From assembly GCA_023440825.1 (NCBI GenBank), contig JAEXRL010000030.1, positions 167,408 through 231,407 of the forward strand: a DNA stretch of 64,000 nucleotides. The letters are read 5' to 3'. The DNA is from Pseudomonadota bacterium (GTDB taxonomy: Bacteria > Pseudomonadota > Gammaproteobacteria > Burkholderiales > Burkholderiaceae_B). A model generated the notes under the pieces. It was given only the letters and a program-made list of their open reading frames with translations, did no database searches and had not been told where the DNA came from. The position numbers and the translations under genes are program-made. Shown here one piece after another: positions 14,136 to 35,935 of this stretch. The first letter of the stretch is position 1. Each line of letters opens with the position of its first letter.

Positions 14136-14558
14136 ATGTTTGAAGCATTACCGACAGGGATCGCCGGCATTGGTACCGATTTGATTCGTATTGAGCGTAT
14201 CGAAAAAGCCTTGCAACGACATGGCGAACGCTTTGTGCAACGTATCTTGGGCGAGCAAGAGCAAGAAGTATATCGGCGGCGTAGTGCGCGCGACCCGAAT
14301 CGGGGAGTGCGTTACGTTGCGATGCGTTTTGCTGCCAAAGAGGCATTTTCTAAAGCCATTGGCCTAGGCATGCGTATGCCTATGGCTTGGTCACGCATGC
14401 AAACCCTTAATGCTCCGGGTGGTCGCCCTATCGTGGTGCTATCTGGCGAGCTCAAAGAGTGGTATGAGGCACGCTACGGCGAAGCATTCGTATCCTTGAC
14501 TGATGAAAGCGATATGGCCATGGCCTTTGTGCTGGTGCAGAATCGTCCCACTTCTTAA
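14136..14558 (+). CDS. acpS: Holo-[acyl-carrier-protein] synthase
   Basis: [27 protein letters not shown] and a roughly 140-aa length are present. Start taken at ATG 14136. Confidence 0.85.
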
Positions 14559-14584
14559 TACTGCTTTTATTTAATGAGAACCAC

Positions 14585-15640
14585 ATGATAGAAAACACGA
14601 CGTCAGCTACCTTGTCGCCAGGGCCGGTGATTGTGGATATCCAAGGCTATAGCCTAAGCGACGCGGAGCGTGAGCGTTTGTTACACCCCTTAACGGGCGG
14701 TTTGATTTTATTCGCCCGCAACTTTGAGAGCCGTCAACAACTGACCGAACTTTGTGCACAAGTACGTGCTTTACGACCTGGGCTCCTTATTTGCGTGGAT
14801 CATGAGGGCGGACGAGTACAGCGTTTTCGCACCGATGGGTTCACGCCTTTGCCAGCCATGCGTAAACTGGGTGAGCTGTGGGAGCTTGATGCTCAAAAAG
14901 CCGTACAAGTGGCAGCGGAAACGGGCTATGTGCTGGCAGCCGAGTTACGTGCCTGCGGGGTGGATTTAAGTTTCACGCCTGTGCTGGACCTGGACTATGG
15001 CGTCAGCGAAGTGATTGGTGATCGTTCCTTTCATACGCAGCCCAGGGCCGTAGCGCAATTGGCAGAAGGCTTGATTCGTGGTTTGCAAAAAGCCGGTATG
15101 GCTGCGTGTGGCAAGCACTTTCCCGGGCATGGTGCGGTAGTGGCTGATTCGCATCATGAGATTCCGATTGATGAGCGCGACTTAAGCACCATCGTGGATG
15201 CAGATGCAGCACCCTATGGCTGGCTGGGCACCGTGCTGCTGCCTTCGGTGATGCCGGCACACGTGATTTATCCGCAAGTTGATGATAAGCCTGCTGGTTT
15301 TTCAACATTCTGGTTGCAACGCGTTTTGCGTAAAGCCTTGGCATATGATGGCCTTATCTTTTCTGACGATTTGACGATGGAAGGTGCTTCGGTGGCTGGC
15401 GATATTTTGCAGCGCGCCCAGGCCGCCTTGCAGGCGGGTTGTGACATGGTCTTGGTCTGTAACCGTCCTGATTTGGCTGATCAGTTGCTAGCTAGCTTGC
15501 AGTATGAGCAGCCCGCGCAGTTTGCCGAGCGATTCTATCGTCTGTTACCCGAGCAGCCCGCTATGGACTGGGATTCCTTACAAAATGACGAGCACTATCA
15601 GTATGCCCGAGGACTTCAATCTCAAATCATTTCTCGCTGA
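14585..15640 (+). CDS. nagZ: Beta-N-acetylhexosaminidase (peptidoglycan recycling)
   Basis: GH3 motifs are present: [18 protein letters not shown] and SDDLTMEGA. Confidence 0.9.
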
Positions 15641-19990: not shown

Positions 19991-20070
19991 TACTATCGCA
20001 GTGCTTAGGTGGCAAACAGGCTACGCTGTTTCGTCGCACTAAGACCTACCGGAATGCTCATGGCGCATAG

Positions 20071-20124
20071 CCTGAATCTATAGCTTTTATCTGCACAGAA
20101 TAAGCTATAGGTTCAGGTTTTTTT
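20071..20124 (+). terminator. Rho-independent terminator after fur
   Basis: A 16-bp stem forms between CCTGAATCTATAGCTT (20071-20086) and AAGCTATAGGTTCAGG (20102-20117) with one mismatch, followed by TTTTTTT. Confidence 0.8.
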
Positions 20125-20128
20125 ATGC

Positions 20129-20162
20129 GTGTCACTTTTGCGTCATATAGCTTTGCTAGTAT
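20129..20162 (+). promoter_or_regulatory. Candidate Pho box plus -10 element upstream of the STN-domain gene
   Basis: Two 7-nt direct repeats are separated by TTTT: GTGTCAC (20129-20135) and GCGTCAT (20140-20146). Each matches CTGTCAT at 5/7 positions. TAGTAT (20157-20162) lies 10 nt downstream, the classical Pho-box/-10 geometry. The motif match is weak. Confidence 0.3.
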
Positions 20163-20232: not shown

Positions 20233-20943
20233 ATGAGGTTGATACATAATCAAAAAAATCAGCTTGGTGTGGGTGTTTTCGCTTACCTGCTGTGGCCTCT
20301 AGCCGTGTTGTTTATACATAGTCTGGTGTACGCAGCACCTTTACATAGGGTGTATAACTTCGACCTGCCCCCAGACTCGCTCAGTCACACCCTAGAGCGT
20401 TACTCACAGCAAACCGGGGTGTCGGTCGCGGTCGACGTAGCACATATGCATGCAAGCACCTCACTGCTTAAAGCTCGCCTAAACGCACTGGAAGCATTGC
20501 AACATGTATTGCGGGGAACAGGTTTGGTGGTGCGTCAACTTAGCGCTGATTCTTTAGTGGTTGTGCGTGGGTGGACGACAATGAACTCTTCTGAGTTACA
20601 GCGTTACGAACTGGCTGGTCTGAACCCTCGTAATGTACTTCACAAGCGCTATGCAGCGCAGTTACAAACCAATCTTATCGCTGGTCTCTGTAACACAGCT
20701 ATTACCAGACCTGGTTCTTATCGCCTGGCTTTGCAGTTACGTATCGATTCCCATGGGAAGGTTATCCAGCATAAACGACTGGATACCAGTGGGAACCCGG
20801 AACGCGATCGTTATATCGATGAGATCGTTGCCAGCACCTATGTTGGGGCAGCTCCTCCGAGTGATCTAGCGCAGCCAGTGCTCATCCTGATTTTACCAGT
20901 AGCATCGAACGCGTACACCCTGTGTAATAAGGTAAACCGCTAA
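20233..20943 (+). CDS. Secreted STN (secretin/TonB N-terminal signalling) domain protein with TonB-C-like C-terminal region and no beta-barrel (VreA-like)
   Basis: A signal peptide is followed by an STN-like segment (FDLPPDSLSHTLERYSQQTGVSVAVD...LEALQHVLRGTGLVVRQLSADSLVVV). The C-terminus (YRLALQLRIDSHGKVIQHKRLDTSGNPERDRYIDEIV...PPSDLAQPVLILILP) fits the TonB C-domain pattern. At 236 aa it is far too short for a TonB-dependent transducer. Confidence 0.65.
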   Translation: MRLIHNQKNQLGVGVFAYLLWPLAVLFIHSLVYAAPLHRVYNFDLPPDSLSHTLERYSQQTGVSVAVDVAHMHASTSLLKARLNALEALQHVLRGTGLVVRQLSADSLVVVRGWTTMNSSELQRYELAGLNPRNVLHKRYAAQLQTNLIAGLCNTAITRPGSYRLALQLRIDSHGKVIQHKRLDTSGNPERDRYIDEIVASTYVGAAPPSDLAQPVLILILPVASNAYTLCNKVNR

Positions 20944-20945
20944 TC

Positions 20946-21479
20946 ATGCAAACGGCCAGTCAGCGCTTACGACTCAGGCTTAAACTGCGTTATCGCCACT
21001 TGCGTTTACGCCTAGTTGGACTATTAGGGTCTAGCGATAGCGCAACGGCCGCTTTGCATGAAACTTGGTTGCAGCTTGATCGTGTTCCCGACACCACTAC
21101 TCCTACAGATGCTGATGCGTATTTGCTGCGTATGGCCTCCCATATAGCGTTTAAGCATTTTCGTCAGGATACTCCCTATTTATCTGCTCAGGCACTTGAT
21201 GAGCTTTACGAACTTCCTGATCAATATTCCGATATTGAGCAGCAACACGAGACGCGTCAACGTCATCAGCAATTGTTGCTAGCCATAGGGCAATTACCCC
21301 CTCGAAGGCGGGCCATTTTGTTAGCTGCACGGGTGTACGGTGAAAGCAATCAGCAGATTGCAATTGATTTTGGGGTCTCGGTGAGTACCGTAGAGCGTGA
21401 AATCCGCTTAGCGGTAAGGGGATGCCAGCAGCAGATGGAAGAGGTTCTGACTGATGCATCCCCACAGCTAGGACGCTAA
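20946..21479 (+). CDS. ECF (FecI-type) RNA polymerase sigma-70 factor
   Basis: Region 2 (ALHETWLQL) and region 4 HTH (LPPRRRAILLAARVYGESNQQIAIDFGVSVSTVEREIRLA) are present. The start is 2 nt after the upstream stop. Confidence 0.88.
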   Translation: MQTASQRLRLRLKLRYRHLRLRLVGLLGSSDSATAALHETWLQLDRVPDTTTPTDADAYLLRMASHIAFKHFRQDTPYLSAQALDELYELPDQYSDIEQQHETRQRHQQLLLAIGQLPPRRRAILLAARVYGESNQQIAIDFGVSVSTVEREIRLAVRGCQQQMEEVLTDASPQLGR

Positions 21480-21495
21480 GTGCTAGAGTTGCCTT

Positions 21496-22467
21496 ATGAA
21501 TCACCCTAGACCACCTCCAGATGCGGTTTACGAGCAAGCTCGTCAATGGCTAGCGTCTCTTAATTCCGGACGTGTGACGCCAGCACAAGCCAAAGCATTA
21601 AGTCAGTGGCGTGCTCAAAGCCCCGCGCATGAACAAGCCTGGTGCGATACCCTTGCTACGTGGAAAACCTTACAACCTGCCTTAAAAACCATGCTCAATA
21701 GCGAGGATGGGGTACAGACTATTGCGTGGGCAGCAAGCGAATCTAGAAAACTACAACGTCACAGGCGTCAGCTTATAAGCGGTACTGGTGTAACGATTTT
21801 GGGCGGTTTGGCCTTAGCTTTATTCCCGCCGCTAGGGCTTTGGCCTTCACTAATCGAGTACCAGGCTGATTTTCGCACAGCTAAAGGCGAACAGCGCACT
21901 ATACAACCTGTTCAAGGCTTAACGGTACAAATGAATACAGCGACGCGTCTTAGCTGGAAAGATCAGACCACGCTAAGTGTGGAGCTGTTGGCTGGTGAGG
22001 CCGAGGTTCATACTGTTGTGGCGATGCAAATACAGGCAGGTCAAGCGTCTATACAGCTTAATCAGGCAAAGATAAATATACGATGGTTAAACGATCAAGC
22101 CGTTTGCGTCAGTTGCTTACAAGGGTACAGTCATGTGCAGTTAGGGCAAGGGTACGAACTTCAGGCTGGACAGCAACTTATCTATGACCAGTATGGTTTA
22201 CGCAGTCAGCAAGCTGTCGATATACAACAAGTAAGCGCTTGGCGGCAGGGCATGCTGTCATTTAACGATGTACCGTTAAGTACCGTAGTAGCAGAAATAA
22301 ACCGCTATCGACCCGGAAGGTTGGTCTTACGTAATCAGCAATTGGCGAACATCCCTGTGCGTATGTTGGTATCGGCGCATAAGCCAGATCTGGCTGTACA
22401 TATGCTGACAGAGCTCTACCAGCTTGAGCTGATAAATTTACCCGGGGGTATAGTTTTACTCAGCTAG
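21496..22467 (+). CDS. FecR-family transmembrane anti-sigma factor / sigma regulator
   Basis: It has an N-terminal anti-sigma domain (A..WL..L.SG..T......L..W), a single TM (GVTILGGLALALFPPLGLW) and a periplasmic FecR domain with a C-terminal LSF..VPL..VV.E..RY motif. Confidence 0.88.
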   Translation: MNHPRPPPDAVYEQARQWLASLNSGRVTPAQAKALSQWRAQSPAHEQAWCDTLATWKTLQPALKTMLNSEDGVQTIAWAASESRKLQRHRRQLISGTGVTILGGLALALFPPLGLWPSLIEYQADFRTAKGEQRTIQPVQGLTVQMNTATRLSWKDQTTLSVELLAGEAEVHTVVAMQIQAGQASIQLNQAKINIRWLNDQAVCVSCLQGYSHVQLGQGYELQAGQQLIYDQYGLRSQQAVDIQQVSAWRQGMLSFNDVPLSTVVAEINRYRPGRLVLRNQQLANIPVRMLVSAHKPDLAVHMLTELYQLELINLPGGIVLLS

Positions 22468-22677
22468 TGGTTACATTTTGTTTCTATTTGGTAGTGAAAA
22501 AAGTAAAGGCTAACCGCAAAAAAAAGACTTCTATAAACAGGGGTGTCTATTTGTGAGCCAAAGCGTGTGCGCGACAGTCTCGTCATCCAATTAGACATCT
22601 GCTTTCTGATTCCTTTTAGCGCTTGTTCGATGCGATCCTTTATGAGGGCATCGACGGCATGATTTCAGGGTGGCTTC

Positions 22678-25600
22678 ATGTTGCAGAGTCTTGTCTCCAC
22701 GTCCGCGTGTTTATTGTCTAAGTTTGAGAAACGTTCTAAGCCCAGAGCAGGGGCACCGAACTGGACGATTACACCACTTGCGTTGGCCTTAGGTATGGTG
22801 CTTGCTTCAGCTTGGCATAACGGCGCTCGTGCCCAGCTACGTGGCGATTTTTTCACCCAGCAAAACGCGGCCCTGCAACAGCAGCAACGCGCCGCGCATC
22901 AGGCAGCCCGTGCCGTCCAACAATCTTTAAGCACACAGCAGCAGCAAGCCGCCGCCCGGGCACATTTGTCGCACTCCTTAGATAACCTGAATCGTACCGC
23001 CAATGCTATTGCCGCCCAGCAAGCTGCCCAAAACGCCGCTCGTCTAGCCGCTCGGCAGCAAGCCAGCAGCGTGGCCGATGGCTTGGCACAAGGGGGACTA
23101 GAAGTAGCCACCGGGGATAAAGCCACTTGGTTAGGTGCCCAAGCCCCCGTAACAAGCAGCAAAGACGGTCAACATCATGTGGGCATTAAACAAACCGAAT
23201 CTAAGGCCATACTTCACTGGAACCGCTTTGATGTGGGACGCAACACCACCGTAGAATTTCAGCAAAAAAGCACCGATGCCGTCCTGAACCGTGTGGTGGG
23301 TGTGGATGCTAAGCCTAGCCAAATACAAGGAAAAATTAAAGGCGATGGCACGGTCATGGTGGTCAATCAGAACGGCATTATATTTAGTGGTAGCAGCCAG
23401 GTAAATGTGCGTAATTTGGTGGCTGCTGCAGCAAGTTTGAGCGATCAGCAATTTTTCGAGCATGGCATATTGGGTGCAGAACAAGGTAAAAACGCCGTAT
23501 TTAACGATGCTAAGGGTGATGTGCGTGTTGAGGCGGGTGCGCTCTTAGCTCCCTTGGCGCCACACAGCAGCACTCGCGAGGGAGGCTATGTGCTGTTATT
23601 GGGGCAGCATGTACATCATGCAGGAGAAATACAGCTTAATCAGGGACAAGCGGTATTGGCGGCAGGTGATACCTTCTATATTCGGCAGGGTCGTGGTTCC
23701 GAAGCCAATCGGCGCTCCTCAATTGAAGGCCTAGAGGTGGCAGCACATGCTGCCGCGGATCAGTCCCATACATTGACGCATACCGGTGTGATTCAAGGTA
23801 ATAGCAGCGCTATTACTTTACATGCTAGACAGGTTCAGGTGGGAGGAGACAAGCTGCAAGCGCCAGCCCTTACCCTGAGTACGAGTACGACACAAAAGCG
23901 CGGCACTATTCATGTTTTGGGGACTCAAGATACCGACAGCCAGGTCGAACTGCTTAACAATAGCGTAACGGCTATAGTGATAGATCAGCAAGAGCTCACT
24001 GCCTTGGACAGCCAGCGTGACAGTTTACGTCAACATGAGGCGCAATATACCGATAACACCAATGAGGACCGTTTACGAGACCCCGGAGCAGTCTTTGGAG
24101 CCTATGGTAGCAGTGGTCGTTTAAACGTCGAGTCTAGGGTGAATCCCAGTCCTGATCGTCTGGATCAATCACGTATAGAGATCATTTCGGGTGGAAATAT
24201 TCACGCTAGAGGCGGAGCACTAGTACTGGCCACAGGAGGGCAACTGGTTTTCCGTACTGCACCTAGCACGACAAATGCTCAGGTAGGGGGAGTAGCACAT
24301 ATTCATAGCGGTGCTGCGCTTGATGTATCAGGCGCAATCGGTGTGGCCTTATCAATGAGTGACAATAACCTGCTCATTAATGTGCAAGGTAATGAGTTAC
24401 GCGACGCACCTGTTAACCGTGATAGCAATGCGCGAGAGTCAAAAAGCTGGCTATCTAATAGCGATCTCTGGCTAGATGAGCGTTTATTGGTACCGGTCTT
24501 GGGACTTGATGGTGAGTACCGCTTGTACAGTCACGGTGGCTTACTGGAAGTGTCTGGTTGGGTGGGTTTGCGCCGCCGTGGCATGGGTGAATGGGCTTCT
24601 TCCGGGGGGAATATTTCCGCGTACGGTGCACGCTTTACGAGCGATACCGGTGCCTTGTTGAATTTATCAGGGGGCACTTTAGATGTGGCCAGTGGTTCTA
24701 TTCGACAGTCTTGGCTGTTAGATGGGCGTGGTCGCCTACATTTGGCTGATAGGGCATTGGCAACGATACCTTATACCCGTGTGTTTACCGGCTATGTGAG
24801 TGAACATCATCGCTGGGGTGCCTCATCGCAGCGAGAGTTTCATTCTCCTTTATTAGCCCCCTATTATCGCTATGAGCAAGGCTACACGGTTGGCCGTGAT
24901 GCGGGCGAGTTAATTGTCGCCACCCAGCACTTTGAGCTACAGGGACAACTTATTGCGGATACCTACCAGTCACCGTTGCAGCAGTTAGGGCGAGTTAACA
25001 CACAAGGAAATAGTCACCATCAACTGGCGCAGCGTGCTGGTTTGATTATTGGTCATGTAGTGCCTATGCTGCAAGACGGTGCCTTAGTGTCTTATGTGCG
25101 CGCCGTCAGTGATCAAGTACATATACATGGTGGCGATACAGCACAGCCTGTAAATTTTGACATAGACGACTGGGTGTTTGATGCCAATAGCAGTAATAAG
25201 CTGTCAGCGGATCTGCTGAACGATTGGAATTTAGGCAAGTTATTGGTTGCGGCTAACGAAGCCATTGTGCTGGATGGTGACTTACGGTTAGCGCCCAGTG
25301 CCATGGGAGGGGAATCAACTACGCTGGGCTTACATGCGCCACAAATAGTGGTTAATGCGGCGATTTATACACCTGCTGGCGGCATTGTAATGAATAACCG
25401 TTTAACAGGTCGTGATCAACAAGGAAAGGTTGTGAGCGACGAACGTCGCTTACCGCTGGCGAGCCACAACATTAAGCCTCACTTTATCCATGTGGGTGCG
25501 CAGGGTGATCTGAACACATCAGGAGTAATAAACCTCAGTGGTGATTCAGTCGCTAAACCATACCTGGAGGGTGGCGATATCCATATTTTATCCTCTGGTT

Positions 25601-28600
25601 ATTTACGCATACAGAAAGGCGCTAAATTAGTAGTTAATTCGGGTGCGATGTTGGATGAGAAAGGCCAATTGCAGGGTGGTTATGGGGGGGATGTGCATCT
25701 GGCTAGTGGTTACCGCAACTCGGAAGCAACCTTCCCTAGTTACCTAGAAGGACACATTGAAGGCTATGGGGTAAAAGGCGGCGGAAGCTTACGCGTTGAT
25801 GCGAGTACGGCAGTAAGTATAGGTGGGCGATTACTACAGGAAAACGGAGTATTAAAAGCAGGGGAGGTCGCGCCCACCATGCTAACCATAGAGGAAACGA
25901 TAGAGCAAGGTGAGGGTGAAATTCTACTTGCAGATATTACATATAAGTCGAATGTGTTAATGCCAGGGCAATACTATGATTATGCCCTGATGGGGGGATT
26001 CAATACTGCATGGGTGAATGGGTGGCCGAGCGACATGTACGTTACAGAGGATTTTTATTTTTTTGAACCTCTGAAGACTGTCCAGGGCGTACCAATAACA
26101 ATTGCTGCTCGGGTACCTGGGGATGATAGCCTACACAGAGTAACTCGTGGCTGGCTCAGGAAAGGCACACAGATATTGGGCCTTTCAGCTAGACCTGCTA
26201 ACCAAGTGCTCCCCCCAGAGGTATTTAGTGTACCGATTCCTGTTACTAACAATTATGACAAGGTGTTGTCTGCAGGAATATTGTTAACCGCCGAAGTGCT
26301 TAATAATACCTTGCAGGGCAAACCCGTTGTGATTACGCCAGGTAATGTGATTGCTGCTGGGCAAGTGTTAGGGGTGGATGTAAAGGTTACCCCTTTGTTT
26401 GAGTTTTCTACAGCCAGGTTCAATAGTGGCTTTGCCCACTACGATATACGAGGGGCACAAGGCTTACGTGTTGCCGCTTCACATAAGGACGGGGAAACGC
26501 TGCAGCCAACACAGCCGCTGTGGCAGCTTGAGCACAGCTCAGGCACTATCAGTTTACAGGCAAAGCAAAGGGCGCAGCTTTTGCAAGCTCCAAAGAACGC
26601 ATACGATGCAGCCACCTTCCGTCCCGGCGTACAGCTAAGTTTTAGTGCTGGTTTAAATGGTGGTGATACTCAAAACCGTGCTGGCTTAGGTATTACTATT
26701 GATGAAAATGTAACGCTGCAATTAGACCCGCTGCAAACGCTTAGTTTACATTCCGCTGGTTTTACGCGTATAGACGGAAAAATAGTGATACCAGGTGGCG
26801 TGGTCGAATTTAGTGATTCGGTAAACAATACGCTACTGCAACGTCCCGCACAGATAAGTCCTGCTGCTGGCTTAGGGGTGCAGTTAGGCAAACAAGCACA
26901 TATAGATGTGGCAGGTCGAGCATTTAAGGTGCATAATGCAGCGCAAAATAAAGCCTATGGTTTGGTGCTAGATGGCGGTCAGGTGCTGTTTGGCCAAGCG
27001 ATTGAGCGCGAAACAGGGCGAGGTTATCACGAATATACACCCAGTTCTTTGCACGGTTTTGTAGCAATAGCTGAAGGTGCCCTCGTAGATGCATCTGGTG
27101 CTGCCTTATACGATAGCCAAGGTGCTTTAGTGCAGTCCTCACGTGGGGGCCGTATTGTTTTAAATAGTACCTATGGTTGGCAAGTTGATGGTGAACTATT
27201 AGCACACGGGGGCAAAGCAACGCAAGGTGGCAGTTTAGAACTAGCTTTAGAAAGCCCCAGCTACCGACGAGACAACGCGTATTTAAATCAGTGGTTACAT
27301 CAGCGCGAGTTAAATCTCGTACAGAAGATATCGGATATTACTCTAAGTAATTATACAGTAGGCCGTGCTTCATATTCGGTACAGCAACTAGCGGAGGGTG
27401 GTTTTTCCAGTGTGGCGCTGTTGGTGAACGGCGCCCTTAGCCTACAGGATGGTTTACACCTTGACTTAGGGGATCAGCTGTCTGATCTTTCCCTTTACAC
27501 CCGCGCTATGCATTGGACTGACGATGTAGGTTCCCAAGCTACAGCCAGCATTAAAGCACCCTACTTATTGTTGGCGGGTACCACCTACCGAAGCTCAAAC
27601 CCCGATGGCACCTCGCAAGCCCCTGTTGGTGGTATTTCCGTACCTGGGCGCAGTGAATGGGCACAGGGTTCAATTAGTTTCTATGGGCAGCATATAGACC
27701 TGCGTGACCACATTTATATGGGTAGGCACGAAGTGGGGTCAAACCTAACAAAGTTTGGCTTTAAGCAAATCAACTTGTTATCTGATACAGATGTGCGTAT
27801 CAGTTCGAGTGGTCTTATTGGTGGCGGCAGCGTTAATGCGGGGTTAACGGTACCGTACGAACTTAATATTTACGCACAACGTACCTACGTTAGCAGTGGC
27901 ACTATTGCCATCTTACACACGCCTGAAATTTCATGGATTAGAGAAAAAGAGGGCTATATTGATGGTACAAGTAGCCCATCCGAAGTAGGCAGTAGCATTA
28001 ATTTTTACGCAAGCCCTAAGGGTAAGGTGTCATCAGCCACACCCAATACTTACGGAGGTCGTTTAGCCATAGGTGCTGAGCAAGTGCGCGTAGCCAGTGC
28101 TATCTATGCCCCAGAAGGGCAGTTGTTGATTGGGCTGAATAAAGAATATGGTGCAGGCGATACAGAACGGGTGCACTTGGAGGCAGGCGCAATAGTGTCT
28201 GTCAGTACTGCAGGTTTAGTCATCCCGAACGGCGGCACTACCGATGGCCTGACGTGGGAATGGGCTTCGGGTGAAACGTTTACCGCTCATAAAGACGATA
28301 CACGTCGCCGAATAACTAAAAATCTACGCTTAGCGGGATCCTATATTAAGGTGGATGATGGTGTAACGCTAGATGTAAGTGGTGGGGGCGAATTACTAGG
28401 CTATGGTTTTATTGCTGGGCGTGGCGGCAGCAGAGATATTCGTTATCATGCTTTAGACCCCTTCCAGCGTGTACTACAGCGCCAGAACTACAAGGATTAT
28501 TCTGGTATTTATGCTGTGCTGCCTGCGAATGATTTACTGGCACCAGCAACTCATAGCGCAATGGGGGCCGATTTCACGTCGCTGCAGTTCGACCACGCTT

Positions 28601-31600
28601 TACTTGGCCTGTCTACAACGCAATCGTATACCTTAATGCCAGCAGAATACGCTTTATTGCCTGGTGCTATACGGGTAGAGCTTGTTCAGCAGCCCCACCC
28701 ATGGGTGGTGACCGATGCGCCTGACGTAAGCTTGGCTCGGCACGATGGATTGTATTCAAACGCAGGCAGTTACCGTAGTGGTGCAACGTTACTTGGGGGG
28801 ATCAATGGGCATGTACTAAACAGCCATATACAGGTTCTCTTAACGCCTGCAGCAGTAGCGCATAAACATGCCAATTATAATCAAACTACCTTCACGCAAT
28901 ATCTGGAAGCAGCAGCTTTATTACATGGAGTGATGCCAGAAAGAGGAATAGCCGACGCTGGTGTGCTGCAATTCACCTTGAACAACTACCATCATTATAT
29001 AAATGGGCAGTGGTTGCCTGTTCGCAGGGATAAGGCTAGCTTGCAGTTTGAAGGACAAATAAACGCCCAAAGCCAAGGGGGCTATTTGGCTGAGGCGGCT
29101 GTAAATACGCACCGCAAGACGATGAGCCTTACAGTAGTGTCCTCAGAGCTGCCGTTAATGCCCCCGTCGTCAAACACTGCTTTTTTGCTTACAGATGCAG
29201 CACTTAACCAGATAGCAAGCAGTGTTTATCATCTGCGTGTTGGTGTGGCGGATCGGGCAAATGATGCAGCACATACGCTATCGTTGGCGACAGGTGTGCA
29301 GTTGCATGCCCAAGAGCTTTTGCTAGGGGCAGATCAAAGCCTTCAACTTGCCGACGGTGTCACCATTACGGCACGCCATCAAGGCACCTTAGTTCCAGAA
29401 AACTATCAGGCGCGGGCTATTCATGGCGATGTAACGGCATTGCTAATCTCGGAGCGTCAGCAAATCGGGGCAAGTTTCGGTACGGGCGGGGGGCAGATTC
29501 GAGTAGGTGAGGCTGTGTTGCAGGCAGACGGTGTGGTGGCGTTCATGACCGACGGTGAAGTAACGCTAAACCCGCGTGCCCAAATTGGAGCAAAAGAGCT
29601 ACAACTGAAGGCAAGCGCCATCACTTTATACGGTAGCGAACAAAATGCCGATAATAACCGCTACGGCCTACAGTTGGATAGCCATTTTATACATCACTTG
29701 CTTCATAATCCTTTGATAAAAATACAAAAATTACATTTAGCAGCCAGTGATTTTGTAGGTTTTCATGGCAACGTACAGCTTAACCTGCAGCAAGAGGGTG
29801 GTTTAGGGCAGTTTTTACTGAGTACGCCTACCTTGAAAAGTGTAGGACATAATCAGGCTAACGTAGAAATTCATGCAGATGAGTTCCAGTGGGCGTCACC
29901 GTCTTACCAAGAATCTGCGAGCATTGTTAGTGCTACTGATTCTTCGGGGCAGTTTATTGTTAACGCACAAACAGTTTTACTTGGGCAGGACAAGCAACAA
30001 TTTGGCGTTTCAAAAACACCTGTGCTGCGCGCAGTAGGTTTTGATAACTACCAGTTACAGGCCGAGCATGCCATACAGCTTGCTGGTGACATTGACGTGC
30101 AGTTTTATCAACGACAAAAAGAGCTTAGCAACGGGAAGCTTAGTTATCAGGATGGTAGCTTAACTTTAGTTACCCCACAGCTTAGTGTGGCTGCTGGGGT
30201 GGCAGGTACTGTGGCTGCACATACCATACATATACAAGGAAACCACGCTGCTAACCCTAGTAAGGCAAACGACCTGGTAGGGCTAGGGGGAAGTTTGGCG
30301 CTACATGCCGATGCGCAGTTACATACACAGAATGTGTACATCACCTTACCAACGGGGAAAGTGTTGTTACAGGCTGGCACAGGGCTTAATGTAGGAGAAA
30401 ATACTCTTATTGATGTTGCCGCGGTGCCTCAAACCATAGGAGCACAAGATGTTCATCTATGGGGTGGTGAGGTTGAGTTACGCAGTCAGAGAGGCTATAT
30501 CCATACGCACGAAACTAGCAGTATTGATGTGTCTGCAATGAATAACCATGCAGGCCAGTTACGCGTCATACTTGAGGAAAGCGAAGGCACGAAACCTAGC
30601 ATTCGTTTAAATGGTGCTTGGGCGGGGCAAGCTGTTGGTAATTACGCTAGCACAGGGCAAGAGTTTGCGTATGCTGGCGGACGATTTAGTTTGCAAGCGC
30701 CAAACACCGAAGCCTCTGGTGGCTCAGCCAGTGCATGGTTTACAGAATTAAACCGTAAGTTAGATGAAGCAGGCTTTTTCGGTGCTCGCCTTTTTGCGTA
30801 TGAGCGTGGTGACTTGGTAGTTAGCGATACTGTCACGGCAAATATCATCGATCTACAATTGCGACACGGTCAACTAACAATAAATGGGACGCTGGACGCT
30901 AGCGGTGATCGCGTAGGGCGTGTGACGCTACAAGCACAGCATGGCTTAAGCTTAGGTGACACTGCAACGATTGATGTAAGTAGCCATCAACTGCGTGTTG
31001 ATGCATACGGTGATCCTATTCATGCTGCAAACCGTGGCCGAATTACCCTGGGGAGTGAAAGTGGCACCGTGCGAATAGGAAATAGCCATTTTAATTTCCA
31101 AGTGGGTGGAGATAGCAATTACCGACAAGGCGCTTTGCATATTTATGCGCCACGGTTACAGAAAGATGGTGCTGGTGTACGGTTACGCATGTCTGCAGGG
31201 GCTACACAGCAAGGGGCGGCAGAGGCAGTGGTATATGGTGTTGCACGTTACACAGATGCACCACTTGCAAGCGAGCCTCTTAGCGATGGTAAATGGTATC
31301 AGCAGATTGATCAGTCTTATATGGATCGTCTGCATCAAGATTCAAATTTATTTATAGAACGCAGCTTAGCGGATACCGGTTGGCGGATGGATGCTTTAGC
31401 AGTGCAAAATCAAGCTATATGGCAGGATATTATGCACTTACGTCCTGCCGTCCAAATTGAAAGCCTAACTGCAGAAACGCCTTTAGTGGTAATAGGTGAT
31501 ATCGATTTAGCGCGTTATCGTTATGCATCATTGAACCCTGAAGTAGCGAGTGCTTATCAAACAGGAGTCGATTCTTCACACGCTGCATATGGTTCAGGTG

Positions 31601-34600
31601 AGCCTGGGTTGTTAATGTTAAAAGGCAAAAGCGATGTATATATATTTGGCAGCATTAACGATGGTTTCGCCATGCCGGTTGACCCCGCCACGGGGAGTCT
31701 GATTCAGACGCCTGACGATGACAATTGGTTGCTAGTGACAGGTACTCAACCTTTAGAAAGTGATGTGTGGTTGCCTATTAATGGTGTCACTCTAGAGGCT
31801 GGGACTGTATTTCCTAAAGGGGTGCAGCTTAATTACACGCTTGGTGCAGTCGCTCCAGTGAGTGTAGCGCAGGGGGTAGTGCTACCTATCGCAGGTGTTA
31901 CCATTGCAGCATATACGTTCTCAACCACCGTTGCGTTCAACCATAATGTAGAGGTACAGGATACCCAAGGGGTAGTGCATACAATTTTGGCGGGGCAGCG
32001 CGTGCCTGCAGGTAGCATATTGCCCGCAGGTTCAGAGTTAAAGGCGGGCAGTCGCCTCCCTATACCGTTAACCTTGCAGTTTGCTTCATGGCCTGCTAAT
32101 ACTCCTTTAATTAGTGACTTAACCCTTGATGCTGCTCAGCAGCTTTCTGTGGGCGCATTTATACCTGGTACAGCAAAGTTGGTTCTGCCAAGCACACTGC
32201 TTGATGGTACGTATAATTTACGTCCAAGCACAAATGGCGAACAACGAATAAATTGGGCTGCAGCCCCTATGTTAGGTGAGGGCAAGAAGTCGTGGTCTAT
32301 ACATATCGGGGCAGGGGAAAACGCCTTAGCGGGGAAATTAGTGCTCAGTGACCCCCATTATTCCGCAATAAGTCGTGTGGTGGTTGAAGGGGCTTACTAC
32401 ACAGTACAGCTGTGGGATGATGAACTAGGTGGATACTATTACACCGCATACATGGCCAAGCGTGCACATCCTGGGCAAGGTATGGAAATAGGCAAGCCGA
32501 TGACGCGTGCGCAGGTTTCACGGTATTGTGGTACTCCGGCTAGTGCGGCAGTGTGGTGCGACAGGTTAAAACATCCTGATAGTCATAAGGTGGTTGCTGG
32601 TTCACCTTTAGTAAGTGTATTGCGTACCGGCACGGGAGATATACAGCTTAACGCAACCAGCGACATCAACATTAACTCGGCATATGGGGTGTACACCGCT
32701 GGTGCGGAAGTAGACCTTAAGCGTGTAGCAAGTGTTGATAATGCCTACGCTTTACGCGCTTTTAACAGAGAAAACTACAGAGATGTTGGTAGAAGCGTTT
32801 TAGGTGCGGGTGGCGTTGAGTATGAACATTTGGTAAACGAAGGTAGCACGTCAGCTCTACGCACAGGTTGGTACAGCGACGGTGGCGGCGATGTTAGCAT
32901 TCATGCGGGGAAAGACTTGTTAGGTTGGAGCACCGCTAATACCCTAAGCTACAACACACGCGCGACGCGGGCAGCGCTTGAGCCTGATGTGTGGTTATGG
33001 ACGCAAGGCCTGATCAATGATGAAAGGTGGGAAAATACGTCTACAGGCTGGAAGCTCAACTTTGGTACCTATGTGGGTCCGGGGAATGATGCTATACATG
33101 ACGAAGCACTAAAGCGTTTGCCCTATTTTCGAGGGTTTACTGGTGTTGGTACACTGGGTGGCGGCAATGTGGCGATTAATGTAGGCCGACATTTTGGTGC
33201 TATACAAATGGCAAACGATAGTGCGCGTACCACAGGCCGGGGGGTAACTGCTGCCGCTGCCTCTACGGGTATTGTGCATAACGATGGGCGTGTGCAACAG
33301 ATGGGTGGGGGCGATGTCTCTATTATTGTTGGTGGTCGCGTAAACCCAGTAGAAAAAACAGAGTACATGCGGCACGTTAACTTTAACCATTATGGCGCGG
33401 TTATTGCGATGCGTGGGCAAGCTCAGCTACAGGCGTTTTCGGTGGGTGCGGCACAGCCTTTTTTCCACGGTAGCTATAACCTCGATTCGCGTCCTGTTAG
33501 CGATGATTTGGTCTACACCTTACAAAGTGCTGCTGGGTTGAATGTGTTCCTGGCTGATGCTGCACTAAATATAAACAGTTACGACGGGCTAACCGTTAGT
33601 GGTATAGCCGATATAGGTAGGCGTGCCCAGGGTATGTTCGCTTTACGTAGTAGAACAAAGGGCGAACGCATCGCTGAAATTGATGCGCAAAGTGTTTTCA
33701 GTTTATGGACAGACTATACCAGTGTGCGGTTTAGCAGTGCTGGGGGCGACCTAATTCCTTTTAATATGCAAGTGACTGCACCTAATTGGAGCTCACACCG
33801 TGGCAGTGTATTTTATGCTGCCTCCAATGAGACGGGTTTCATTTTACCGTCACAAATGGCAGTCTTAGCGGCAAGTGGGTCTGTGTATTTGGGGTCGACG
33901 GGGTTTTCACATTCAAATAGTAATTCAAGCAAAATTTTTGTTAGTGCTCCTAATGCCTCACAAGGTGGAAGCTTCATGGTGCAGGCTAAAAATATGGTGT
34001 CTGCACGGGATTTCATTTTGGTGCCGTCCAATGCAGCGCACACTGTCACCAGCGGCCCCAAACGCGCACCCGTGTGGGTGGATGGTCCAGTTAGGGGGCT
34101 ATTGCTCAGCACAATGAGTAATAACACCTTAGGAAGAGCGATAAGTGAATATTTTGCTTTTGGGCCTTTGGTGGATCACAACAGTGGCACAACTGCAGCC
34201 AGCGTAGAAGTTTATGCCGAGCAAGGCGATATTATCGGTTTGGACCTTGGGGCTACCTTTACAGCACGAGGTGGGGAGCAATGGTTAGCAGGGCCTAGTA
34301 GAGCAAGCATTTCTGCTGGGCGTGACCTAGTAAGTTTTGGGCGTGGTGCAGATACTGTATTTAATACGCCGATGGGCGCCATTGAGGTGAAGGCAGGCTT
34401 GCTTGTACACGATAATGCACAAACGGTTTCTACCCTGTATGCAGGCCGTGATCTGTTACACAGCCAGGTGCAAATAGCCGGACCAGGTACCTTAGCACTT
34501 ACCGCAGGGCGTAGCATTCGTATGGAGGATAGGGTATCCGTTACCAGCCTAGGCGGGGTTGTTCCCGCCGACGAACGCCCCGGCGCCGACATTGTGATGC

Positions 34601-35868
34601 TTGCTGGTGTGGGGCAAAATGGCCCAGCCTACCAGCAGTTGTTGCAGCAATATACCCAGTCCAGCAATCGTATCGACACAAGCCTACCCCTAGCTGACCA
34701 GCCTGGTGGCGTTGTGCAAGACTACGAGGCCGAATTAATCGATTGGTTAGCCGAGCGCTTCGATTACCAGGCAGAGGATGCTGAGGCAGCACGCGAGTAC
34801 TTGGCGGCATTGCCTACTGCGCAACAAGGTGTTTTTGCACGCCAAATTTACTTTAACGAATTACGCGCTGGTGGGCGTGAATACAATGACCGCAATGGTC
34901 CACGTTTTGGAAGCTACCTACGTGGACGTAATGTGATAGAGGCCTTATTCCCCACCTTAGACAGCCATAATAACCCCATTGTTTACGAGGGTGGGGTAAC
35001 GATATACGGCAACCAGGGTGTTCATACCTTGCGGGGCGGCAATATCCAAATACTTAGCCCTGGCGGTGCACAGGTGTTTGGGGTCGAGGGTATTTACCCA
35101 AGTGGTGCCGCAGGGGTCATAACTCAAGGGCAAGGCGACATTCAACTGTTTGCACGCGATAGTATTTTGCTAGGCCAAAGCCGTATTATGACCACCTTTG
35201 GTGGCGACATTCTGGCTTGGTCAGCCCAAGGCGACATTAACGCTGGCCGCGGTTCTAAAACCACCGTGGTCTACGCCCCACCGCGTCGGGTGTACGACGA
35301 AATGGGTAATGTCAGCATCAATCCCGATGTGCCCAGCACGGGTGCGGGTATTGCCACGCTGGCTCCTATTCCTGAAGTCCCGGCGGGTGATGTGGACTTG
35401 ATTGCTCCCTTGGGTACGATCGACGCAGGCGAAGCGGGTATACGCGTATCCGGTAACGTGAACGTGGCGGCTTTGCACGTCGTGAACGCTGACAACATTC
35501 AAGTGCAGGGCGAAAGCAAGGGCATGCCTATAGCCGTTAGCGTCAACGTAGGCGCCCTGACCAGCGCCAGCAGTGCCGCCAACTCGGCCGCCACGGCGGC
35601 TCAGGAAACCTTGAGCCGTGCACGCGATGCGGCGCGCAGTAATCAGCCTTCGCAGATTCAGGTGCAAATACTGGGCTTTGGGGCAGGGGACAGTACGTCC
35701 AGCCTTACACCAGCTCGCGTGTTGCCGTCTACTCAGCTTGTTACTGAGGTAGAGAAAGTCGTAGATTATGATCCTGAGCATGCTGTGCGTATTCTTAGCT
35801 TTGGCGCGCCAGATAACTTGCGCAGGCTTGTACTGAGTGAGCACGAGCGTCGTAATCTAGGTTTGTGA
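22678..35868 (+). CDS. Giant (4396 aa) two-partner-secretion exoprotein, filamentous-haemagglutinin family (TpsA; PdtA/FhaL-like)
   Basis: It has a long signal peptide (predicted cleavage ARA/QL) and a TPS/haemagglutination-activity domain (ILHWNRFDVGRNTTVEFQQ..DAVLNRVVG...SQIQGKI.GDGTVMVVNQNGIIFSG). A G/N/S/T-rich beta-helix-like sequence runs for thousands of residues. The conserved C-terminal block is GDINAGRGSKTTVVYAPP...IDAGEAGIRVSGNVNVAALHVVNADNIQV. Confidence 0.9.
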   Translation: MLQSLVSTSACLLSKFEKRSKPRAGAPNWTITPLALALGMVLASAWHNGARAQLRGDFFTQQNAALQQQQRAAHQAARAVQQSLSTQQQQAAARAHLSHSLDNLNRTANAIAAQQAAQNAARLAARQQASSVADGLAQGGLEVATGDKATWLGAQAPVTSSKDGQHHVGIKQTESKAILHWNRFDVGRNTTVEFQQKSTDAVLNRVVGVDAKPSQIQGKIKGDGTVMVVNQNGIIFSGSSQVNVRNLVAAAASLSDQQFFEHGILGAEQGKNAVFNDAKGDVRVEAGALLAPLAPHSSTREGGYVLLLGQHVHHAGEIQLNQGQAVLAAGDTFYIRQGRGSEANRRSSIEGLEVAAHAAADQSHTLTHTGVIQGNSSAITLHARQVQVGGDKLQAPALTLSTSTTQKRGTIHVLGTQDTDSQVELLNNSVTAIVIDQQELTALDSQRDSLRQHEAQYTDNTNEDRLRDPGAVFGAYGSSGRLNVESRVNPSPDRLDQSRIEIISGGNIHARGGALVLATGGQLVFRTAPSTTNAQVGGVAHIHSGAALDVSGAIGVALSMSDNNLLINVQGNELRDAPVNRDSNARESKSWLSNSDLWLDERLLVPVLGLDGEYRLYSHGGLLEVSGWVGLRRRGMGEWASSGGNISAYGARFTSDTGALLNLSGGTLDVASGSIRQSWLLDGRGRLHLADRALATIPYTRVFTGYVSEHHRWGASSQREFHSPLLAPYYRYEQGYTVGRDAGELIVATQHFELQGQLIADTYQSPLQQLGRVNTQGNSHHQLAQRAGLIIGHVVPMLQDGALVSYVRAVSDQVHIHGGDTAQPVNFDIDDWVFDANSSNKLSADLLNDWNLGKLLVAANEAIVLDGDLRLAPSAMGGESTTLGLHAPQIVVNAAIYTPAGGIVMNNRLTGRDQQGKVVSDERRLPLASHNIKPHFIHVGAQGDLNTSGVINLSGDSVAKPYLEGGDIHILSSGYLRIQKGAKLVVNSGAMLDEKGQLQGGYGGDVHLASGYRNSEATFPSYLEGHIEGYGVKGGGSLRVDASTAVSIGGRLLQENGVLKAGEVAPTMLTIEETIEQGEGEILLADITYKSNVLMPGQYYDYALMGGFNTAWVNGWPSDMYVTEDFYFFEPLKTVQGVPITIAARVPGDDSLHRVTRGWLRKGTQILGLSARPANQVLPPEVFSVPIPVTNNYDKVLSAGILLTAEVLNNTLQGKPVVITPGNVIAAGQVLGVDVKVTPLFEFSTARFNSGFAHYDIRGAQGLRVAASHKDGETLQPTQPLWQLEHSSGTISLQAKQRAQLLQAPKNAYDAATFRPGVQLSFSAGLNGGDTQNRAGLGITIDENVTLQLDPLQTLSLHSAGFTRIDGKIVIPGGVVEFSDSVNNTLLQRPAQISPAAGLGVQLGKQAHIDVAGRAFKVHNAAQNKAYGLVLDGGQVLFGQAIERETGRGYHEYTPSSLHGFVAIAEGALVDASGAALYDSQGALVQSSRGGRIVLNSTYGWQVDGELLAHGGKATQGGSLELALESPSYRRDNAYLNQWLHQRELNLVQKISDITLSNYTVGRASYSVQQLAEGGFSSVALLVNGALSLQDGLHLDLGDQLSDLSLYTRAMHWTDDVGSQATASIKAPYLLLAGTTYRSSNPDGTSQAPVGGISVPGRSEWAQGSISFYGQHIDLRDHIYMGRHEVGSNLTKFGFKQINLLSDTDVRISSSGLIGGGSVNAGLTVPYELNIYAQRTYVSSGTIAILHTPEISWIREKEGYIDGTSSPSEVGSSINFYASPKGKVSSATPNTYGGRLAIGAEQVRVASAIYAPEGQLLIGLNKEYGAGDTERVHLEAGAIVSVSTAGLVIPNGGTTDGLTWEWASGETFTAHKDDTRRRITKNLRLAGSYIKVDDGVTLDVSGGGELLGYGFIAGRGGSRDIRYHALDPFQRVLQRQNYKDYSGIYAVLPANDLLAPATHSAMGADFTSLQFDHALLGLSTTQSYTLMPAEYALLPGAIRVELVQQPHPWVVTDAPDVSLARHDGLYSNAGSYRSGATLLGGINGHVLNSHIQVLLTPAAVAHKHANYNQTTFTQYLEAAALLHGVMPERGIADAGVLQFTLNNYHHYINGQWLPVRRDKASLQFEGQINAQSQGGYLAEAAVNTHRKTMSLTVVSSELPLMPPSSNTAFLLTDAALNQIASSVYHLRVGVADRANDAAHTLSLATGVQLHAQELLLGADQSLQLADGVTITARHQGTLVPENYQARAIHGDVTALLISERQQIGASFGTGGGQIRVGEAVLQADGVVAFMTDGEVTLNPRAQIGAKELQLKASAITLYGSEQNADNNRYGLQLDSHFIHHLLHNPLIKIQKLHLAASDFVGFHGNVQLNLQQEGGLGQFLLSTPTLKSVGHNQANVEIHADEFQWASPSYQESASIVSATDSSGQFIVNAQTVLLGQDKQQFGVSKTPVLRAVGFDNYQLQAEHAIQLAGDIDVQFYQRQKELSNGKLSYQDGSLTLVTPQLSVAAGVAGTVAAHTIHIQGNHAANPSKANDLVGLGGSLALHADAQLHTQNVYITLPTGKVLLQAGTGLNVGENTLIDVAAVPQTIGAQDVHLWGGEVELRSQRGYIHTHETSSIDVSAMNNHAGQLRVILEESEGTKPSIRLNGAWAGQAVGNYASTGQEFAYAGGRFSLQAPNTEASGGSASAWFTELNRKLDEAGFFGARLFAYERGDLVVSDTVTANIIDLQLRHGQLTINGTLDASGDRVGRVTLQAQHGLSLGDTATIDVSSHQLRVDAYGDPIHAANRGRITLGSESGTVRIGNSHFNFQVGGDSNYRQGALHIYAPRLQKDGAGVRLRMSAGATQQGAAEAVVYGVARYTDAPLASEPLSDGKWYQQIDQSYMDRLHQDSNLFIERSLADTGWRMDALAVQNQAIWQDIMHLRPAVQIESLTAETPLVVIGDIDLARYRYASLNPEVASAYQTGVDSSHAAYGSGEPGLLMLKGKSDVYIFGSINDGFAMPVDPATGSLIQTPDDDNWLLVTGTQPLESDVWLPINGVTLEAGTVFPKGVQLNYTLGAVAPVSVAQGVVLPIAGVTIAAYTFSTTVAFNHNVEVQDTQGVVHTILAGQRVPAGSILPAGSELKAGSRLPIPLTLQFASWPANTPLISDLTLDAAQQLSVGAFIPGTAKLVLPSTLLDGTYNLRPSTNGEQRINWAAAPMLGEGKKSWSIHIGAGENALAGKLVLSDPHYSAISRVVVEGAYYTVQLWDDELGGYYYTAYMAKRAHPGQGMEIGKPMTRAQVSRYCGTPASAAVWCDRLKHPDSHKVVAGSPLVSVLRTGTGDIQLNATSDININSAYGVYTAGAEVDLKRVASVDNAYALRAFNRENYRDVGRSVLGAGGVEYEHLVNEGSTSALRTGWYSDGGGDVSIHAGKDLLGWSTANTLSYNTRATRAALEPDVWLWTQGLINDERWENTSTGWKLNFGTYVGPGNDAIHDEALKRLPYFRGFTGVGTLGGGNVAINVGRHFGAIQMANDSARTTGRGVTAAAASTGIVHNDGRVQQMGGGDVSIIVGGRVNPVEKTEYMRHVNFNHYGAVIAMRGQAQLQAFSVGAAQPFFHGSYNLDSRPVSDDLVYTLQSAAGLNVFLADAALNINSYDGLTVSGIADIGRRAQGMFALRSRTKGERIAEIDAQSVFSLWTDYTSVRFSSAGGDLIPFNMQVTAPNWSSHRGSVFYAASNETGFILPSQMAVLAASGSVYLGSTGFSHSNSNSSKIFVSAPNASQGGSFMVQAKNMVSARDFILVPSNAAHTVTSGPKRAPVWVDGPVRGLLLSTMSNNTLGRAISEYFAFGPLVDHNSGTTAASVEVYAEQGDIIGLDLGATFTARGGEQWLAGPSRASISAGRDLVSFGRGADTVFNTPMGAIEVKAGLLVHDNAQTVSTLYAGRDLLHSQVQIAGPGTLALTAGRSIRMEDRVSVTSLGGVVPADERPGADIVMLAGVGQNGPAYQQLLQQYTQSSNRIDTSLPLADQPGGVVQDYEAELIDWLAERFDYQAEDAEAAREYLAALPTAQQGVFARQIYFNELRAGGREYNDRNGPRFGSYLRGRNVIEALFPTLDSHNNPIVYEGGVTIYGNQGVHTLRGGNIQILSPGGAQVFGVEGIYPSGAAGVITQGQGDIQLFARDSILLGQSRIMTTFGGDILAWSAQGDINAGRGSKTTVVYAPPRRVYDEMGNVSINPDVPSTGAGIATLAPIPEVPAGDVDLIAPLGTIDAGEAGIRVSGNVNVAALHVVNADNIQVQGESKGMPIAVSVNVGALTSASSAANSAATAAQETLSRARDAARSNQPSQIQVQILGFGAGDSTSSLTPARVLPSTQLVTEVEKVVDYDPEHAVRILSFGAPDNLRRLVLSEHERRNLGL
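23077..23940 (+). other. TPS (haemagglutination activity) secretion domain of the giant exoprotein
   Basis: Residues about 134-420 carry the NRV/NQNGIIF equivalents of the NPNL/NPNGI TPS motifs. Confidence 0.75.
35200..35530 (+). other. Conserved C-terminal domain typical of the giant FHA-family subgroup (DUF3739-like, from memory)
   Basis: The segment reads GGDILAWSAQGDINAGRGSKTTVVYAPPRRVYDEMGNVSINPDVPSTGAGIATL...DLIAPLGTIDAGEAGIRVSGNVNV. Confidence 0.45.
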
Positions 35869-35935
35869 GTGGAGTCGGGGACTTTTAAGCAGGGGGGGCT
35901 TGTAGGCTACCCCTGCGTAGTTGGCTAAGCGTATA

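Follow-up and report, generated by a model that had tools for sequence, protein, structure and literature searches.

A probable PUMA3-type sigma-factor module and its adjacent giant exoprotein gene in an Alcaligenes-like betaproteobacterium

The stretch of DNA analysed here, hereafter called the window, comprises 64,000 nucleotides (64 kb) of contig JAEXRL010000030.1 (positions 167,408 to 231,407 of the forward strand; assembly GCA_023440825.1) from an Alcaligenes-like betaproteobacterium, and our subject is a group of four genes in it that resembles PUMA3 (VreA-VreI-VreR), a cell-surface-signalling system of Pseudomonas aeruginosa. The initial annotation of this DNA had described three tightly packed genes encoding a secreted protein of 236 aa, a FecI-type ECF (extracytoplasmic function) sigma factor and a FecR-type anti-sigma factor, and the list of open reading frames (ORFs) confirms this layout, with all three genes on the same strand and gaps of 2 nt (vreA-like gene to sigma gene) and 16 nt (sigma gene to anti-sigma gene). 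It had overlooked the expected output gene, a tpsA gene coding for a two-partner-secretion (TPS) exoprotein of 4396 aa, which starts 210 nt downstream of the anti-sigma gene as an uninterrupted ORF of 13.2 kb, and it had also left unreported the fur gene that lies directly upstream of the group (Pfam and NCBIfam). The coordinates of all features are collected in Table 1.

The N-terminus of the 236-aa protein shows a basic stretch and a hydrophobic stretch followed by VYA-AP, and is predicted to be a signal peptide. Two domains follow. Taken as a single sequence, the protein gave sub-threshold Pfam matches to STN (E-value, 0.076) and TonB_2 (0.037), and it matched the N-terminus of FecA (2e-5). 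A profile built from the protein and two relatives matched the signalling domains of FemA, FpvA, FecA, HasR and PupB (best E-value, 1e-9); a profile of 68 relatives matched these same five domains with E-values from 2e-17 to 1e-11, together with weak matches to the C-terminal domains of HasB (0.004) and TonB (0.06). Among the relatives themselves, Pfam detected STN in 63 of the 68 and TonB_2 in 46. The AlphaFold2 model computed from the 68-relative alignment (mean pLDDT, 87) consists of two well-defined lobes: in Foldseek, the first resembles the signalling domains of FpvA, PupB and FecA (target TM-score up to 0.85), and the second TolA's C-terminal domain (2X9A_B, 3QDR and 3QDP; target TM-score about 0.65) and also that of HasB. 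The family profiles, the model and the Foldseek matches thus bear out the proposal that the protein combines an STN domain with a TonB-C-like domain and has no barrel; profile and structure searches were the check named in the initial annotation, and both folds were found.

Across the family of these VreA-like proteins, C153 is invariant and C231 nearly so, a pair of cysteines that would fit a periplasmic disulfide. The invariant positions Q145, C153 and R164 all lie in the C-terminal domain, as do most of the nearly invariant ones, and this domain is therefore more conserved than the signalling domain. The family is large: an exhaustive profile search returned 4100 cluster representatives (50% identity) at E-values of at most 0.001 and 900 at E-values of at most 1e-10. 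Since the best 150 listed members are almost all 200-320 aa long, and nearly all match over both domains, the VreA-like proteins are, judging from their lengths and coverage, a family of full-length proteins, and the idea of the 236-aa protein as a truncated receptor, to which the TolA-like domain would moreover be foreign, was rejected. The exhaustive profile search was needed to reveal this family: a word-indexed search found three relatives with the single 236-aa protein and at least 12 with the family alignment, and a scan of the GTDB representative genomes with a different alignment of the family found none. The label given by NCBI to a Variovorax member is "STN domain-containing protein", and the architecture is not mentioned in papers on periplasmic force transducers or on ECF classification.

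The assignment of the two regulators as a FecI-type sigma factor and a FecR-type anti-sigma factor is borne out by the Pfam and NCBIfam profiles and by the alignment with PupR. The 177-aa sigma factor matches Sigma70_r4_2 (E-value, 3e-14) and, over residues 30-164, the ECF model TIGR02937 (2e-14); FecI models match it more weakly (3e-6), and ECF sigma factors of the PDB are also matched. The 323-aa anti-sigma factor matches DUF4880 (2e-11) and FecR (7e-8) in Pfam and FecR in NCBIfam (2e-17). It is composed of an N-terminal anti-sigma domain, similar to the anti-sigma domain of PupR (5CAM; 0.009), a single hydrophobic span (residues 93-120) and a periplasmic signalling domain (residues 121-312), which aligns with the C-terminal signalling domain of PupR (6OVK_R; 3e-11).

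The 4396-aa TpsA carries a TPS domain at residues 148-400 (5e-25) and a DUF3739 domain at residues 4175-4285 (5e-41; both Pfam), with a probable signal-peptide cleavage after residue 52. After the signal peptide and ahead of the TPS domain, all module-linked TpsAs (including those of the related loci L004 to L008 described below, whose N-termini were aligned) have a segment of about 100 aa that carries a strongly conserved helix motif, NLNxxAxxIAAQQAAQxAAR; this segment is unusual among TpsA proteins and could be a periplasmic recognition element. We considered a CdiA-type toxin as an identity for this TpsA and rejected it: TPS and DUF3739 are the only domains found in it, its C-terminal 500 aa are conserved (33-50% identical to the TpsAs of distant modules), and since its stop codon is separated by 67 nt from the convergent queF gene, there is no room for an immunity gene. 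That 67-nt spacer holds a GC-rich hairpin lacking a U-run (35889-35916), a possible shared terminator of the two genes with weak support (z = -2.5).

Table 1. Features of the four-gene locus, in window coordinates.
Feature	Residues (aa)	Position (nt)	Strand	Basis or remark
fur terminator, long hairpin and 7-U run		20071-20124	+	RNA fold
Pho-box-like direct repeat TGTCAC-N6-GTCAT, candidate PhoB site		20130-20146	+	vreA-like start codon lies 87 nt downstream
vreA-like gene	236 aa	20233-20943	+	ORF list, profiles, predicted structure
Predicted signal peptide of the VreA-like protein	1-34	20233-20334	+	sequence reading
STN (TonB-dependent-transducer-type signalling) domain	~38-112	20344-20568	+	profiles, model
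TolA/TonB-C-like domain	~135-222	20635-20898	+	profiles, model
FecI-type ECF sigma factor gene, VreI-like	177 aa	20946-21479	+	Pfam/NCBIfam
FecR-type single-pass anti-sigma factor gene, VreR-like	323 aa	21496-22467	+	Pfam/NCBIfam/PDB
Candidate ECF-type promoter for tpsA, AGGCT-N16-CTTCTA		22507-22533	+	conserved geometry; inferred
tpsA, two-partner-secretion exoprotein gene	4396 aa	22678-35868	+	TPS and DUF3739 (Pfam)
Conserved pre-TPS helix of TpsA	100-128	22975-23061	+	N-terminus alignment

The P. aeruginosa PUMA3 system comprises VreA (PA0674), the sigma factor sigma-VreI (PA0675) and VreR (PA0676), and has PdtA (PA0690) as a target (PMC2729926, PMC4971064, PMC7035377). VreA, the product of the first gene of vreA-vreI-vreR, is a mostly soluble periplasmic protein whose N-terminal domain resembles FpvA and whose C-terminal domain resembles TolA; the tpsA gene PA0690 (pdtA) is among the targets of sigma-VreI (PMC2729926). 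Our comparison with VreA covers its first 99 mature residues only. Within these 99 residues, VreA is 36% identical to the window protein (E-value, 3e-13; 49.7 bits), the best score among the P. aeruginosa signalling domains compared, those of FpvA, FemA, FiuA and FoxA reaching at most 37 bits. The family hidden Markov model gives the same ranking, with 97.5 bits for the VreA fragment versus at most 67.6 bits for the signalling domains of FpvA, FemA, FoxA and FiuA, and the VreA fragment is 50-59% identical to other members of the VreA-like family. The analogy with PUMA3 drawn in the initial annotation is thus supported by these scores, by the gene order and by the two-lobed architecture. What did not hold is the implied rarity, with PUMA3 as the sole described analogue: the family is very large, and PUMA3 homologues followed by tpsA were already listed in 2009 for Burkholderia vietnamiensis and Janthinobacterium, both betaproteobacteria, as well as for Rhodopseudomonas palustris (PMC2729926, Discussion and Fig. 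S5).

To place the four genes in a wider context, nine related loci (L001 to L009) were fetched for their vreA-like gene. The order vreA-like gene, ECF sigma gene, FecR-type gene and tpsA recurs in all seven of the intact ones. The contigs of L001, L003 and L004 break inside tpsA, and the fragments of L004 and L001 resemble the N-terminus of the window TpsA; in L005 (Variovorax sp., GCA_024701975.1), L006/L007 and L008/L009 the TpsAs look complete, at about 4000-4500 aa, and carry both TPS and DUF3739. In L006/L007 (1-20717) and L008/L009 (1-20750) the units form tandem arrays, a TpsA of 3500-4500 aa standing immediately upstream of a further vreA-sigma-FecR-TpsA unit, an arrangement similar to the repeated PUMA3 clusters that have been reported in Janthinobacterium and R. 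palustris. L001, L003 and L004 all come from the same sequencing run (SRR25400123) and have vreA-like proteins 33-48% identical to that of the window; three modules in one run suggest that there are several paralogous copies per genome or per community. L002 (417-2110) is decayed: after about 145 aa its sigma gene breaks off and continues in frame into a fragment of a membrane protein, and neither a FecR nor a tpsA gene comes next; the vreA-like gene, along with the Pho-like box, is intact. Finally, primers lying within the 5' end of pdtA give QQRVNQQLQR on translation, a sequence similar to QQKANEQLQR in the conserved pre-TPS region of the TpsA of L008; this hints weakly that PdtA may belong to the same TpsA subfamily as the TpsAs of these modules.

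The closest named genome, judging from UvrC, is that of Alcaligenes endophyticus DSM 100498 (88% identity; 72-78% for other Alcaligenaceae), in agreement with the family suggested in the initial annotation. Its backbone (L010) runs uvrC, pgsA, a gene of the major facilitator superfamily (MFS), fur, queF and aceA, with nothing between fur and queF (spacer, 14398-14578), and the module is absent from the fur/queF site in 16 of 16 Alcaligenaceae loci, A. endophyticus included. Because the whole block is missing there, the four genes (20233-35868; 15.6 kb) are one presence/absence unit, and the adjacency of the module to fur is a coincidence of the backbone. When the A. endophyticus spacer was compared with the flanks of the module, no target-site duplication, insertion scar or mobility gene was seen at the junctions. 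The module also evolves much faster than its surroundings, as the comparison of the window with the syntenic metagenomic locus L001 makes clear: UvrC, Fur and the MFS protein of the backbone are 87%, 77% and 73% identical, versus 43-48% for the VreA-like protein, 64-67% for the sigma factor and 53-55% for the FecR-type protein.

Two regulatory elements are proposed, one ahead of the three-gene operon and one ahead of tpsA. The upstream boundary of the module is marked by the terminator of fur, which would insulate the module from that gene: the fold of 20062-20128 reaches -29.2 kcal/mol (z = -6.3), and none of 200 shuffled sequences was as stable. The Pho-box-like repeat beyond it was found by aligning the regions upstream of vreA-like genes, L002 being left out of the derivation. 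The resulting pattern, TGTCAYN6GTMAY, has a single match in the 64 kb (0.16 expected), namely at the repeat, and one match in each of L001 to L004, always upstream of the vreA-like gene; the looser TGWCAYN6GWMAY occurs only upstream of the vreA-like gene, both in the window and in nine of nine related loci. The repeat resembles the Pho box to which PhoB binds in the vreA promoter of P. aeruginosa, ACCGTCACACCACAGTCACACAGT (Quesada 2016, Table S2, PMC4971064), the core of which is GTCAC-N6-GTCAC. Because it has four mismatches in 14 positions to the strict Escherichia coli Pho consensus, which is not unusual on its own, and because the pattern derives partly from these loci, the argument for a Pho box rests on its conserved position and on the precedent of P. 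aeruginosa, where PhoB dependence of PUMA3 has been demonstrated (PMC4971064). A search for Fur boxes found no match with three or fewer mismatches anywhere in the window, the best candidates in both module promoters having nine mismatches in 19 positions. This absence and the conserved Pho-like repeat point to phosphate starvation, and not iron, as the likely first input. Iron control, which the adjacency of fur might suggest, was rejected on the same absence and because fur belongs to the conserved backbone.

Regarding tpsA, a non-coding block of about 75 nt after the FecR stop codon (22468-22545) aligns closely with positions 12279-12360 of L001. As the flanking module proteins of the window and L001 are only 43-64% identical, the conservation of this block implies a constrained regulatory element. 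It contains a candidate promoter whose geometry (5-mer, 16-nt spacer and 6-mer) recurs upstream of tpsA in the related loci, with AGGCT/CTTCTA in L001, GGGAA/CATCTA in L003 and GGCGG-N16-CGTCTA in L005, L006 and L008; for comparison, the sigma-VreI promoters of P. aeruginosa read TTCGG-N16-CGTCTA (pdtA) and TTCGG-N16-CGTCAA (phdA), so that the candidate agrees with them in geometry and comes close in its -10 element. About two loose matches to this pattern, which was set after viewing the sequences, are expected by chance per 64 kb.

From these observations and the following likenesses, we propose, with a probability of about 80%, that the locus is a Vre/PUMA3-type ECF sigma module whose output is the adjacent TpsA, so that the genes for the VreA-like protein, the ECF sigma factor, the FecR-type protein and the giant TpsA would form one four-gene cassette together with its output gene; tpsA is the likely output gene of the module. 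First, like PUMA3, it has a barrel-less receptor-like protein of roughly 240 aa in which an FpvA-like signalling domain is joined to a TolA/TonB-like one. Second, the receptor, sigma and anti-sigma genes follow each other in this order in one operon, with a giant TpsA as neighbour or target. Third, the first promoter holds a Pho-box-like repeat, and the candidate target promoter has the same 5-mer/N16/6-mer geometry. The clusters of Janthinobacterium, R. palustris and B. vietnamiensis, which are known by gene neighbourhood only, share with it that the triad is directly followed by tpsA, TpsB and exbBD being encoded there at a separate locus; they also occur in tandem or multiple copies, as in L006 to L009, unlike the window, where one copy lies between fur and queF within 64 kb. 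With the canonical cell-surface-signalling systems (FecA-FecR-FecI, FpvA-FpvR-FpvI/PvdS and PupB-PupR-PupI), the locus shares a FecI-type sigma factor, a FecR-type anti-sigma factor whose periplasmic domain is PupR-like and, as the presumed contact, a signalling domain of the transducer type. It departs from them in that this domain sits on a soluble protein of 236 aa with neither plug nor barrel, in that there is no Fur box, and in that the output is an exoprotein instead of an uptake receptor.

By analogy with PUMA3, the pathway would operate as follows. Phosphate starvation would lead PhoB to bind the Pho-box-like repeat and to activate the operon of three genes at a promoter of its own, insulated by the fur terminator. 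The anti-sigma factor, located in the membrane, would then hold the sigma factor by means of its N-terminal domain, as suggested by its domains and by the function of its family, until a second signal, from the envelope, lifts the inhibition, probably through regulated proteolysis as in other FecR-type systems. The freed sigma factor would transcribe tpsA from the candidate promoter, a step suggested by the conserved geometry and by pdtA of P. aeruginosa, and TpsA would be exported by a TpsB which, as none is encoded in the window, we place elsewhere in the genome. In the least certain step, the TolA/TonB-like domain of the VreA-like protein may contact a partner in the outer membrane or in the secretion machinery.

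Several points weigh against this proposal. Only 99 residues of VreA and a 10-residue peptide of PdtA could be compared, so that the case for membership of the Vre group is built on architecture, context and a single domain. The genes for TpsB, ExbBD and TonB accompany PUMA3 elsewhere and none is present here: among the Pfam-scanned ORFs of the 64 kb (all those of at least 150 aa plus eight of at least 55 aa lying mostly in gaps), there was no TonB-dependent receptor (Plug/TonB_dep_Rec), ExbB, ExbD, TonB or TpsB, which bears out the initial annotation as regards the receptor, exbBD and tonB. The candidate -10 element of the window tpsA promoter is CTTCTA and not CGTCTA, and no Pho box was seen beside this promoter, whereas the sigma-VreI promoters of P. 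aeruginosa require an adjacent one (PMC4971064). Both DNA motifs, the Pho-like repeat and the tpsA promoter, were defined partly after viewing these loci. Lastly, the signalling role that we would assign to the 236-aa protein by analogy is unproven even in the model organism P. aeruginosa. Other differences from PUMA3 concern its setting: there are no Hxc type II secretion genes and no alkaline phosphatase near the module in the 64 kb, tpsA immediately follows the triad so that the unit counts four genes, and the N-terminal domain is just 36% identical to that of VreA, in an Alcaligenes-like host. Since TpsB, ExbBD, TonB and Hxc are encoded at separate loci in other bacteria, we regard such a neighbourhood as accessory, and not as defining.

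As to what the 236-aa protein does, the chief alternative, which we consider rather unlikely, is that it is no receptor and serves the export of TpsA as a periplasmic accessory, an adaptor or chaperone tying TpsA/TpsB to an envelope partner via its TolA/TonB-like domain, the sigma/anti-sigma pair answering other cues. The dispensability of VreA for sigma-VreI activation in P. aeruginosa speaks for such a role, as do the higher conservation of the C-terminal domain and the fact that the vreA-like gene always travels with a TpsA bearing the conserved pre-TPS helix. On the other hand, the transducer-type signalling domain at the N-terminus is well preserved, the only partners known for such domains being FecR-type C-terminal domains, and from the ORF layout we take the vreA-like gene to be co-transcribed with the regulators and not with tpsA.

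A more speculative proposal, to which we give a low probability, keeps the signalling role and combines it with secretion: the VreA-type protein would be a sensor of secretion status in a self-contained exoprotein cassette induced by phosphate starvation, its TolA/TonB-like domain binding the pre-TPS helix of periplasmic TpsA, or else TpsB, and its STN domain tuning the cleavage of the FecR-type protein. If true, the transcription of tpsA would be coupled to its export, which would explain the apparent dispensability of VreA under the conditions used so far in P. aeruginosa.

Two further explanations are unlikely. The first, to which we give very little credence, views the regulators as an ordinary FecIR pair of the iron type, served by a full-length TonB-dependent transducer encoded elsewhere in the genome as the true receptor, the 236-aa protein being a truncated remnant or a decoy. 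The matches of both regulators to FecI and FecR models and the position of fur directly upstream speak for it, but it is difficult to reconcile with the 900 clusters of VreA-like proteins and the length and two-domain coverage of their best members, with a C-terminal TolA-like domain foreign to receptors, with a conserved Pho-like box in place of a Fur box, and with a fur gene that is part of the backbone and adjoins queF at sites lacking the module, the neighbour gene being tpsA and no uptake receptor. The other, hardly credible, takes the genes for the decaying and no longer functional remains of an inserted island, as the clearly decayed L002 and the absence of a nearby TpsB gene might suggest; all four ORFs of the window, the uninterrupted tpsA included, are intact, the family-conserved residues are retained and the promoter-region motifs are conserved.

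The other Pfam-scanned ORFs of the window are of the housekeeping type (etfAB, an acyl-CoA dehydrogenase gene, lipB, rplS, uvrC, pgsA, fur, queF, aceA, ccoNOQP/ccoG, an fnr-like regulator gene, clpB, glnE, yhdP, tctA and gdhA), and Rfam and tRNA scans of the window gave no match. Just upstream of ccoN, an ORF of 324 aa (38564-39538) has a partial match to E1-E2 ATPases only (residues 165-234); it is far below the normal length of P-type ATPases and possibly represents a truncated gene or a separate small protein. In the region 15504-15605, the listed uvrC ORF probably begins too early: alignments with relatives open at MPEDFNL (15603-15606), and in its longer form the ORF would run into the glycosyl hydrolase gene before it, with an overlap of about 135 nt.

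Taken for what it adds to the Vre family, the locus is a further example of a known and widespread system, of which betaproteobacterial cases were noted in 2009 (PMC2729926), and does not represent a new kind of system. Together with its relatives, it shows a minimal four-gene form of the system, the genes of which are gained or lost together, and thereby ties the barrel-less receptor-like protein to a DUF3739-type TpsA, and not to Hxc secretion or phosphatases. The conserved position of the Pho-like repeat in the Variovorax and Alcaligenes relatives suggests phosphate starvation as the ancestral first input. The value of the locus lies in this comparative support, and it could serve as a simpler experimental model.

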